Source of the DNA: a virus
Taxonomy: Duplodnaviria > Heunggongvirae > Uroviricota > Caudoviricetes
DNA length: 17,695 nt
Virus record (IMG/VR): IMGVR_UViG_2562617151_000007
Coordinates: 1-17,695 of that record
Direction: 5' to 3' (one strand)
The position numbers were made by a program, and so were the translations under genes. The notes under the pieces were generated by a model, which saw nothing but the letters and a program-made list of their open reading frames with translations, was not told the origin of the DNA and ran no database searches. This document shows positions 6,724-9,378 of the stretch, one piece after another (the first letter of the stretch is position 1; the number at the start of each line of letters is the position of its first letter).

Positions 6724-8565
6724 TTACTGCTGTGTTGCCTCAGTAGCAAGCAGCGGCCTGATGGCATTTGCAGCGTTACTCAACGCTCTTTCATAGGCTG
6801 GCGTTCCAGCTTTAGTGTTTGCCAGACGTAAGAGAGCATTCCTTGCTGCTTTGGACTCATACAAACGCATCATTGCACCAAAGCCAGCCTCAAGCCCCAT
6901 TGATACACCAAGAGTCGCAGTTGCGCCAATCGTCCTTATCCTGTTGGCTTGTGATTGCCCCGTCTGAGTTACTACATTTGCGGTGTCTGACCTTGCTGTT
7001 TGCTGTAGAACTTCATGAAGAGCATCAAGCTCTTTCATGTGCTTTCCAGAAAAAATAGTGTTGTAAATTTCACCGCCTGACTGAGATTTCAGCTTATTAA
7101 CTTCAGTGATGAACTTGGCTGGAGAGTCACCGGCCTTTTCCGCTATTTTGCTGACGTAAGCTGCACGCATAGCATCTTTCCCTTTATCATCCAGGGCGCT
7201 CCATATTCGTTTCACGTCAGATGGTTTTCTGCTTAATACAACGGTATTTATAAGTTCAGGACTGGCTTCACTGCTTGCCTTGTTGAGCTTGTTAGCAATG
7301 TTTTTATTAAGCACCTTATTATAAACGTTTGCATAATCAGAATTTGCTTTAAGGTATTTTGCTGCGTCTGATGCACCGAGGTTTTTAGCAACTGCGTTAC
7401 GAAGGTCTTTTGACATTGCATTCTCTACCATATTGGTAGCTGCTTTTGCCTGGTTGGGGAAGACCATAGCATCTCCCTGAACATTAGATCTAAATGCTGT
7501 TCTGTGCTGACGCAAGAGATCAAACGTAACATCCAAATCAGTTGCAGGGTTTGCTAATTCTTCACGTAGGTTACGCAAGGATGTAAGCAGGCTTTGATTG
7601 GCAGACGTCCCAAGCCGTTCCTGTCTTGCGATCGCTGTATTCAGAGCATTCATGGTATTTGTGGTATCAACTGCGGCATTACCCATTTTATTGGTGACGT
7701 CATTGATAACAGCGCCAGCGGCATCCTTCCGCCCCCTTAACGTGGTGGTAAGAGATTTCACCACATCATCAGGGTTGTACTCACCAAAACGGTCAAAATA
7801 ATTACTTACCAGCTTACTACGCGTTGCATATTGCTCCGCTCGCTTTGAGCCTGTCCCGAGCAAAGCCCCCTCGGCATCCTGAGTTAGGCCGCGAGTGAAA
7901 GCATTTTTCGGCGGGATAACATCAGATGTCATTGGTGTCACGCCCATCGATTCTGATGTGGCAATTTTCTTCGCCACTTCTGGCGCAATATCACCTTTTA
8001 TAGCCGTTATTCCACGCCCTATTCCCTTTGCTGCTGCGGAAAGAACACCCTGAGTGGCAAGGTTAACTCCGGCATTTTTAGCTGCATTTTGTGCGAAATC
8101 GCCTTTCTGATTTGCGGCCTCTGCCAGTGATCCAATAGCCATGCTTCCTGCCGTTCCAACTCCTGGAACTAAATACCCACCAATTGTTTCACCGGCTTGC
8201 GCGTAGGGGTCTGTCGGTCTGTCTACTGGACGATAAACATCATCCAAAACCTTGGGTCCACCAAGCCCCTGACTGATTGCATTAATCAGACTTGCGCCGC
8301 CCTGCAATACGTCAAATGGTATGTTTACCAGACCACGACCAGCCTGTTCTGCAATTTGCCCTGCACTTTGACCACCAGTGAGCCAATCGCCAGCTTGTTG
8401 CATCAATGATGGTTCTTCCCGTGTTGGTGCATTATTGGCCTGATTAACTGTTTGTTGCTGAACAGCCTGACCAGCAAAATACTCATCAATGGCGGTGCCA
8501 ATATCTTCGGTGCTCGTACCATCAGGAAAGGTAAATGTCTTACCGTTTGCAGTTACTTTCATCAT
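6724..8565 (-). CDS. DNA ejection/transfer protein, P22 gp16-like
   Basis: 613-aa ORF starting [33 protein letters not shown], recalled as the P22 gp16 N-terminus. Gly/Ala/Gln-rich composition typical of ejection proteins. Lies between the immI region and the upstream ejection-gene remnant. Confidence 0.75.
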
Positions 8566-8750
8566 TCCACCGTAAATTGAATGCCTGATTTTGAGGTATA
8601 TGATCCAACCTGATTCCGTGGTTCTCCTGAAGGTGTCGAATCTTGTGCTGGCGCTGCGTCAGTATTCATTGACATATACCGCTTAACGGCACTCCCCAAT
8701 GATTCACCTTTTTTAACATCCAACCCCAATAGTTTTACGCCATTCCCTGA
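8562..8750 (-). pseudogene. Probable 3' remnant of the upstream ejection-protein gene (gp20-like), truncated by deletion
   Basis: The frame ending at 8562 has its TGA overlapping the gp16 ATG (coupled junction), but upstream it reads into K/R-rich sequence that looks like out-of-frame O, and the track ORF starts only at a GTG. Upper boundary is approximate. Confidence 0.3.
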
Positions 8751-9378
8751 ACTGTGTTCTGAATGCCGAAGCTGCGTTTTTCTTCCCGGCTTTCCGCATG
8801 CCTGCACACCAGAATATTTCCTCGAATGCCTTGTCGGTTTCTTCGTGACGGTCAGGTGATTTTTCACACTCCGTCCGAACACTTTCGGACATAGTGTTTT
8901 TATTATTTCTTTTTTCTTTTGTAATAGTTTCTTTTGTGTGTCCCTGTTTTGGTGACAGCGCTGTCACCGTTTTGGTGACACTTTTTGTCACCAATGCGGT
9001 GACATTATCACCAGAGTAGTGACACCCTTCGATTTGCCATTCCTCGATGTTCTTGTTAGGCCCGATTTGCTGGCCTTCGCGAAGGATAACCTTCATCGCG
9101 ATAAGCTCATTCTTGGCCTTGTTTACCTTCTGTCTTGGCAGCCTGGTAATTTGAGCTAACTGACTATCAGAGATGCGATCCATCTTTTTACCGTAGCCGT
9201 ATGTTTTACGGCATATGGCGTGGGCAACCTTGCTCTGATTTTTCGTTAAATCTGCGCCGATAAGCTCTTCATACAGGGCATTTGCAAGACGGGTATAACC
9301 ATCTTCAACTTCTGCCACACGACGCTCCACAGGCCGTTGTGAAGGCCTTAAATGTGTTACGGTTGCAAGATTACTCAT
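8713..9378 (-). CDS. Replication initiator O-like (N-terminal iteron-binding domain, internal origin), probably C-terminally truncated
   Basis: 221-aa ORF. Residues ~20-115 ([56 protein letters not shown]...GPNKNIEEW) align with the lambda O N-terminal domain. The C-terminal [17 protein letters not shown] motif resembles the start of a conserved phage replication-protein C-terminal domain that then ends early. Confidence 0.75.
8894..9027. promoter_or_regulatory. Origin of replication: four iteron-like inverted repeats plus AT-rich region inside the O gene
   Basis: Repeats GGTGACA-N4/5-TGTCACC at about 8951-8968, 8974-8992, 8998-9012 and a partial copy at 9019-9026, flanked on the O-downstream side by an AT-rich stretch (about 8894-8936). 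Same layout as ori-lambda. Confidence 0.7.

Follow-up and report, generated by a model that had tools for sequence, protein, structure and literature searches.

The closest known relative of the element described here is the CPS-53/KplE1 cryptic prophage of Escherichia coli K-12. KplE1 is 10.2 kb long, lacks a repressor and the immC immunity region, is not SOS-inducible and, though defective, excises in vivo (PMC2951348); it also has gtr-type genes and tail-fibre remnants. Among incomplete prophages at large, replication, packaging and release genes are preferentially lost while integrase and tail-fibre genes are kept (PMC7744054), a pattern put down to selection that disfavours lysogens at risk of death on induction (see also PMC6379469). 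Here we analysed a stretch of 17,695 nucleotides recorded as a virus of the Caudoviricetes (IMG/VR record IMGVR_UViG_2562617151_000007; hereafter, the window), in which an earlier note had proposed a deletion joining the O replication gene to the 3′ end of an ejection-protein gene. Base for base, the window is the reverse complement of positions 1684–19378 of the locus analysed from scaffold JH660541.1 (GCA_000158415.2) of Escherichia sp. 4_1_40B, a human-gut strain. Taking our explanation as a whole, we are highly confident that the window is a nearly entire defective P22/HK620-like (Lederbergvirus-type) prophage at the tRNA-Arg gene argW of this strain, that its scar is one deletion of ~21 kb that removed replication, lysis and head genes, and that it is an ordinary defective prophage and not a new kind of element.

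The element and KplE1 share their chromosomal site, a 16-nt att core and nearly identical integrase and excisionase proteins, with intS at attL and torI at attR, that is, at opposite prophage ends:

1–1158, plus strand: IntS-type integrase, 383/385 residues identical to K-12 IntS (99%); adjoins attL and argW, which sit just outside the window
17495–17695, plus strand: TorI-type excisionase (recombination directionality factor), 66 aa, 66/66 residues identical to K-12 TorI; adjoins attR

Each is defective because its central lytic and morphogenetic genes have been lost. Compared with KplE1, however, the element is larger (~17.9 kb from core to core) and keeps cI, cro, cII and N, the immI region, a full tailspike gene, gene 16 and one mappable junction. 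Given these retained genes and a single junction that can still be mapped, the element is a remnant much younger than KplE1 and less eroded.

The junction between O and gene 20

The features on which the argument turns lie on the minus strand, and are given here in the direction of transcription:

9371–9517, minus strand: DUF2740/hkaW-like small gene overlapping the start of O (gene call and Pfam; equivalent in HK620)
8713–9378, minus strand: O replication-initiator open reading frame (ORF), lambda-O type, 221 aa (O′)
8731–9378, minus strand: native part of the O gene, codons 1–216 of 286; 215/216 residues identical to Sf101 O
8939–9024, minus strand: four ori iterons within O, 19 nt each, TGTCACC-N5-GGTGACA, at 8939–8957, 8962–8980, 8986–9004 and 9006–9024 (repeat family and regex scan)
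8895–8935, minus strand: AT-rich ori stretch, 85% AT (whole window, 57%), following the iterons in the sense of the gene
8729–8731, minus strand: deletion junction; crossover within or after the TA at 8731–8730, with 8729 the first base unambiguously from gene 20
8713–8730, minus strand: five foreign codons (IGVGC) and a TAA stop forming the end of O′, inside out-of-frame gene 20 sequence (codon table)
8562–8729, minus strand: 3′ remnant of gene 20 (ejection/DNA transfer), 168 nt, comprising 55 codons and a TGA that overlaps the gene 16 ATG
6724–8565, minus strand: gene 16, intact ejection protein of the P22 gp16 family (PHROG 770, E=7e-280; Pfam PF26808, precomputed)

Megablast of window positions 8300–9500 against 50,697 phage records returned two non-overlapping kinds of match. 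The cII–O side matched mEp043, Sf101 and vB_EcoP-720R6 at 99.5–99.6%, with alignments ending at window 8730, and the 3′ end of gene 20 together with the start of gene 16 matched N7/HZ41 at 98%, from window 8744. Three-way alignments with both parental types place the switch from O to gene 20 at 8730/8729, which maps to the base a breakpoint that the earlier note had put somewhere within 8700–8760. The minus strand reads GGGAATGGCGTAAAACTA up to the switch and TTGGGGTTGGATG beyond it, and the sequence bridging the junction is GGAATGGCGTAAAACTATTGGGGTTGGATG. The TA at 8731–8730 is common to both parents (a 2-nt microhomology), there is zero filler DNA, and a 7-mer, AATGGCG, at 8744–8738 is present in both parents, in register, 8 nt upstream of the crossover.

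On the O side, residues 20–114 of O′ match Pfam Phage_rep_O (PF04492, E=1e-37) as well as PHROG “replication initiation O-like” families, and the DNA of the native part is 99.1–99.6% identical to mEp043, Sf101 and pB1.H1.18.c6, again with alignments that end at window 8730. Iterons followed by an AT-rich stretch inside O are the layout of the lambda ori. The N-terminal domain, iterons and AT-rich region claimed from the letters alone are thus all present, and O does end early at 8713: the protein follows Sf101 O to residue 216 of 286, continues for IGVGC and stops. The C-terminal domain of full-length O and the downstream partner gene are absent, and gene 16 comes next where relatives carry a toprim or DnaB-like gene. 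In lambda and P22 the N-terminal domain of O binds the iterons, and firing of the origin needs the C-terminal domain together with a partner helicase loader or primase; with both lost, the element would be unable to fire its own ori, intact as that ori is. An O remnant had been expected in K-12 CPS-53 (yfdO/yfdN) as well, a candidate that we rejected since neither gene has a Pfam Phage_rep_O match (yfdO has no match and yfdN matches PerC).

On the other side, the gene 20 remnant is 97–100% identical to phage N7 and E. coli prophages, with 98% identity to the end of N7 gene 20 and one mismatch to the intact SJC33 prophage; over window 6724–8729, gene 16 included, identity to SJC33 is 100.0% across all 2006 bp. 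The frames of O and gene 20 are one base apart, so the fusion is out of frame. A second ORF, 8562–8882 (minus strand, 106 aa), follows the frame of gene 20: upstream of 8729 it is out-of-frame O, and from there it is the gene 20 tail, which runs to 8562 and is joined to the start of gene 16 by the natural ATGA overlap of stop and start. The stub has no start codon of its own. The earlier note had described just such a frame, out-of-frame O upstream and a natural stop/start overlap at gene 16; the ejection-protein gene whose 3′ end it saw joined to O is gene 20, immediately ahead of the intact gene 16.

The missing interval in intact relatives

All retained segments have the gene order of intact HK620/Sf6/CUS-3-type P22-like phages and prophages, at 95–100% nucleotide identity. 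The type of O and ori is that of Sf101, mEp043 and pB1.H1.18.c6, and attP is placed as in HK620. The closest intact relatives are P22-like phages with HK620/Sf6/CUS-3 modules and an Sf101/mEp043-type O. Between the two breakpoints such genomes carry 20.6–22.1 kb (the partner gene, nin, Q, lysis, packaging and head genes, and genes 7 and 20) that is absent here, in line with the ~20 kb of P, nin, Q, lysis and head genes that had been supposed missing. The size of the gap was estimated against three intact relatives:

E. coli SJC33 prophage, at the same argW site: 20′-16-immI arm 99.4% identical over 4654 bp; 22,840 bp corresponding to 764 bp of the window; ~22.1 kb missing
pB1.H1.18.c6, a circular P22-like genome: O allele 99.1% and 20-16 96.9% identical; breakpoints at 10669 and 31503; 20,833 bp missing
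Sf101: O breakpoint at record position 29467, with the gene 20 end assumed to be colinear; ~20.6 kb missing

In these relatives the interval holds the C-terminus of O (70 codons), a toprim or DnaB-like helicase/primase gene, ninB to ninH, Q, the holin, endolysin and spanin genes, small and large terminase, portal, scaffold and coat, the head-completion genes 4, 10 and 26, genes 14 and 7, and ~88% of gene 20. In all three, O is full-length, a helicase/primase gene comes next and gene 20 lies 20–22 kb further on, and a short O directly before gene 16 was seen in no intact relative examined. Nor are there morphogenesis genes elsewhere between the att sites of the element, which is bounded by att cores and host genes; from the set of terminase, portal, scaffold, coat, head-completion and ejection (7/20/16) genes, what is left there is gene 16 and 55 codons of gene 20. 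Directly visible in the sequence are the make-up of the junction, the truncated O and the loss of the replication-partner, late-regulation, lysis, packaging and head genes, as well as the intact state of immC, immI, the tailspike gene, gene 16, int, torI and the att cores.

Three intact genomes were considered as the exact parent and rejected. SJC33 fits the 20′-16-ant arm but has another O allele and tailspike; pB1.H1.18.c6 fits the O arm and differs in integrase and tailspike; AVS0578 carries the same tailspike module but lies at torS/torT with another integrase.

One of these relatives is itself filed under another heading. pB1.H1.18.c6 (NZ_CP146561.1, E. coli B1.H1.18) is a 39.9 kb circle deposited as a plasmid and is a complete P22-like phage genome. 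Its LexA-family cI is annotated as frameshifted (8437–9149), which might account for its assembly as an extrachromosomal circle.

Origin of the scar and competing explanations

We propose that one illegitimate recombination joined O codon 216/217 to gene 20 at 168 nt from its end and removed ~21 kb, and that it was probably guided by short homology, namely the in-register AATGGCG 8 nt upstream and the TA at the crossover. Among 200,000 random breakpoint pairs simulated from an intact relative in the same 40-nt frame, an in-register run of at least 7 arose with P=0.002. Several points weigh against this proposal. In the same simulation, microhomologies of 2 nt or more came up with P=0.16, which is not significant, and the 7-mer sits 8 nt off the crossover, so that the case for short homology as a guide is no more than suggestive. 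No genome turned up as the exact parent; every relative is a mosaic that matches the element only in parts, and the deleted content and single-step origin are therefore read from synteny, not observed. Illegitimate recombination assisted by short homology is a plausible but not proven mechanism.

The NCBI record is a draft scaffold of an early Human Microbiome Project reference genome, and an assembler might have skipped ~21 kb of an intact prophage. We regard such an assembly or scaffolding artefact as next to impossible: the NCBI assembly and three Logan assemblies, each of a separate run (SRR4305365, SRR015730 and SRR015731), agree on every base of the junction, with 0 mismatches over 4.2–8.9 kb and contigs that extend up to several kb on each side, and no repeat longer than 7 nt is common to the two breakpoints that could have collapsed. 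These data sets all probably derive from one clone. By exact-protein look-up, O′ (EIG70180.1) is on 12 contigs, the longest being JH660541.1. No match spanning the junction occurs in 5,426 complete E. coli genomes, the 50,697 phage records or 72,556 plasmids, and exact-match scans with a junction 30-mer gave 0 matches in GTDB species representatives, IMG/VR and JGI metagenome contigs. Its sole carriers are sequence-identical assemblies of one clone, which makes it a private, recent event, consistent with how closely (near-100% identity) both arms match intact prophages. The join could also have arisen by illegitimate recombination between two co-resident or co-infecting phages, one contributing an Sf101/mEp043-type O and the other an N7/SJC33-type 20-16 arm, instead of by deletion within a prophage. 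The best matches of the two arms do fall in different phages in most records, and no single exact parent was found; yet pB1.H1.18.c6 is intact with both allele types (O 99.1%, 20-16 96.9%), so that one parent suffices, and P22-like phages are so pervasively mosaic that differing best matches are expected. We consider a two-phage origin very unlikely, and either route gives the same end product with the same consequences.

What survives had been described as not random, and the genes named (both immunity regions, int/xis, ori, the full tailspike and gene 16) are indeed present and intact. No special pattern is needed to account for them, though: int, conversion, tailspike, immI and gene 16 lie at one prophage end and O′, immC, N and xis at the other, so the survivors are exactly the two ends outside one central deletion, and no design has to be invoked. 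What was lost and what was kept also agree with the general trend among incomplete prophages (PMC7744054). A functional design would be that of a helper-dependent, satellite-like mini-prophage, one that is excised, has its replication supplied in trans by a related infecting phage's O and primase, and is packaged in helper capsids. Satellites (P4-like elements, phage-inducible chromosomal islands (PICI), capsid-forming PICI (cfPICI) and PICI-like elements (PLE)) are likewise small and integrase-bearing, sit at a tRNA gene, and have an ori and no capsid genes; the complete IntS/TorI/att module, the intact iterons and AT-rich ori, the full tailspike and gene 16, and a length of ~17.9 kb, roughly half a P22-type headful, would all suit such a life. 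Unlike satellites, however, the element has no detected autonomous initiator or primase, packaging signal, terS or helper-manipulating genes, it carries ordinary helper-type structural genes (tailspike and gene 16), and it is confined to one clone, with no recurrence of the junction across independent genomes. Both breakpoints are intragenic and leave out-of-frame stubs, and every retained gene is syntenic with, and near-identical to, genes of intact phages. With O truncated and the helicase/primase gene gone, no working initiator is left; no remains of a terminase gene, small terminase included, are present, no capsid-redirecting or hijacking gene was found in Pfam, PHROG and PADLOC scans of the ORFs scanned or in the precomputed Pfam list, and the P22 pac sequence, in the form searched for, does not occur even with 3 mismatches allowed. 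We hold a satellite-like nature to be extremely improbable, and give equally slight credence to its specific form, in which IntS and TorI would excise the element on induction, an infecting phage with Sf101/mEp043-type O and primase would fire the ori, and the concatemers would be packaged by the headful. If this were true, the immunity regions and the unusual tailspike/acetyltransferase module would spread, and the element's own tailspike would possibly retarget helper virions.

Prophage ends, retained genes and consequences

The position of the prophage follows from its flanks. On the scaffold locus a tRNA-Arg(CCT) gene lies 162 nt beyond int (ARAGORN), so that the 3′ end of argW is occupied, and the 16-nt core ATGGTGTCCCCTGCAG stands at both prophage ends (1595–1610 and 19539–19554). 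It is the reverse complement of the published KplE1/HK620 core, CTGCAGGGGACACCAT (PMC2951348). A formate/nitrite-transporter-family gene (yfdC-type) and argW on one side, and a LysR regulator and a GntP permease on the other, reproduce the layout of the K-12 CPS-53/KplE1 site (yfdC-argW ... dsdC-dsdX). Because attP lies between int and xis in this phage family (HK620 annotation), the gene order of the window, int – acetyltransferase – tailspike – ant/arc/mnt – 16 – 20′ / O′ – cII – cro – cI – N – recombination genes – torI, with the slash marking the junction, is the normal prophage order. We had also suspected a complete circle of 17.7 kb, as int runs from base 1 and an xis-like gene to 17695, and rejected it on account of this attP placement and of the host genes and att cores that flank the element.

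A further short repeat lies close to one end. A 16-nt piece of argW, GGAATCGAACCTGCAA, which in the tRNA gene adjoins the att core, has a second exact copy at window 17460–17475 (1904–1919 of the scaffold locus), directly upstream of the torI-like gene. The copy is also present in HK620 (record 11293–11308, inside an annotated cII-binding/“phage integration” promoter) and in K-12 CPS-53 (record 12276–12291), and it seems to be a conserved feature of the KplE1/HK620-type recombination module.

The other retained genes of the two immunity regions, and the tailspike gene, are the following:

2042–4408, minus strand: full-length tailspike, 788 aa, with a P22 head-binding domain (PF09008, E=9e-66); the same 788-aa gene is in the intact AVS0578 prophage
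4509–5387, minus strand: ant (Pfam P22_AR_C/Bro-N), in the immI region (4509–5962)
5456–5680, minus strand: arc (Pfam Arc), in immI
5708–5962, plus strand: mnt (Pfam Repressor_Mnt), in immI
9552–9830, minus strand: cII (Pfam, HK620 synteny), in the immC region (9552–10956)
9939–10133, minus strand: cro (Pfam, HK620 synteny), in immC
10240–10956, plus strand: cI, LexA-like repressor with a LexA-type peptidase domain (Pfam, HK620 synteny), in immC

The receptor-binding part of the tailspike, which has weak matches to endosialidase-type C-terminal chaperones, forms a module (window 1159–4070) with a CatB-related hexapeptide O-acetyltransferase gene at 1351–2022 (plus strand). This module has no close DNA match in the 50,697 phage records, where the head-binding domain alone matches; it is present at 98.5–98.8% identity in four complete E. 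coli genomes, including the intact P22-like AVS0578 prophage at torS/torT. A CUS-3-like neuO and endosialidase module was considered and rejected, there being no heptanucleotide repeat and the CUS-3 match being limited to the head-binding part. Within immI, directly downstream of mnt, is a gene for a Rap1a/Tai-family protein (5959–6294, plus strand), also found in the intact SJC33 prophage; annotation of this family gives it a role in immunity to type VI secretion amidase effectors. A gene of the homing-endonuclease type with HNH_3 and AP2 domains (12700–13212, plus strand), the sole PADLOC match (“HEase”), separates the N-side genes from cIII in the pL operon. Its segment has no DNA alignment to SJC33 or pB1.H1.18.c6, and the gene may be a mobile insertion. 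Also in the early left operon, a 209-aa product (16458–17087, plus strand) has precomputed Pfam matches to PF04447 (dATP/dGTP pyrophosphohydrolase) and DUF551.

As for function, what is established for lambda and P22 implies that, with Q, the lysis genes and the head genes lost, derepression should yield neither particles nor lysis; the element would have lost the ability to replicate, to cause lysis and to assemble particles. By analogy with KplE1, its IntS/TorI/att module can probably still excise it as a circle that does not replicate, and the element would act as a repressor-controlled cryptic prophage that is passively inherited. To the lysogen it would probably bring immunity, lysogenic conversion through the acetyltransferase and whatever exclusion functions it has. 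The deletion has placed gene 16 downstream of pR-cro-cII-O′, and no terminator-like site is predicted on the coding strand between O′ and gene 16, which would be transcribed on derepression only and to no obvious use.

The element is a previously undescribed but ordinary cryptic prophage. For annotation, O′ (EIG70180.1) should be recorded as a truncated gene and ORF 8562–8882 as a gene fragment, and neither is a new protein. Beyond correct annotation the import is small: the locus offers a cleanly mappable, very recent inactivation of a prophage by one large deletion at argW, a possible intermediate stage for studying the decay of HK620-type prophages and, unlike KplE1 itself, a variant of the KplE1 recombination system that has a repressor and can probably still be excised.

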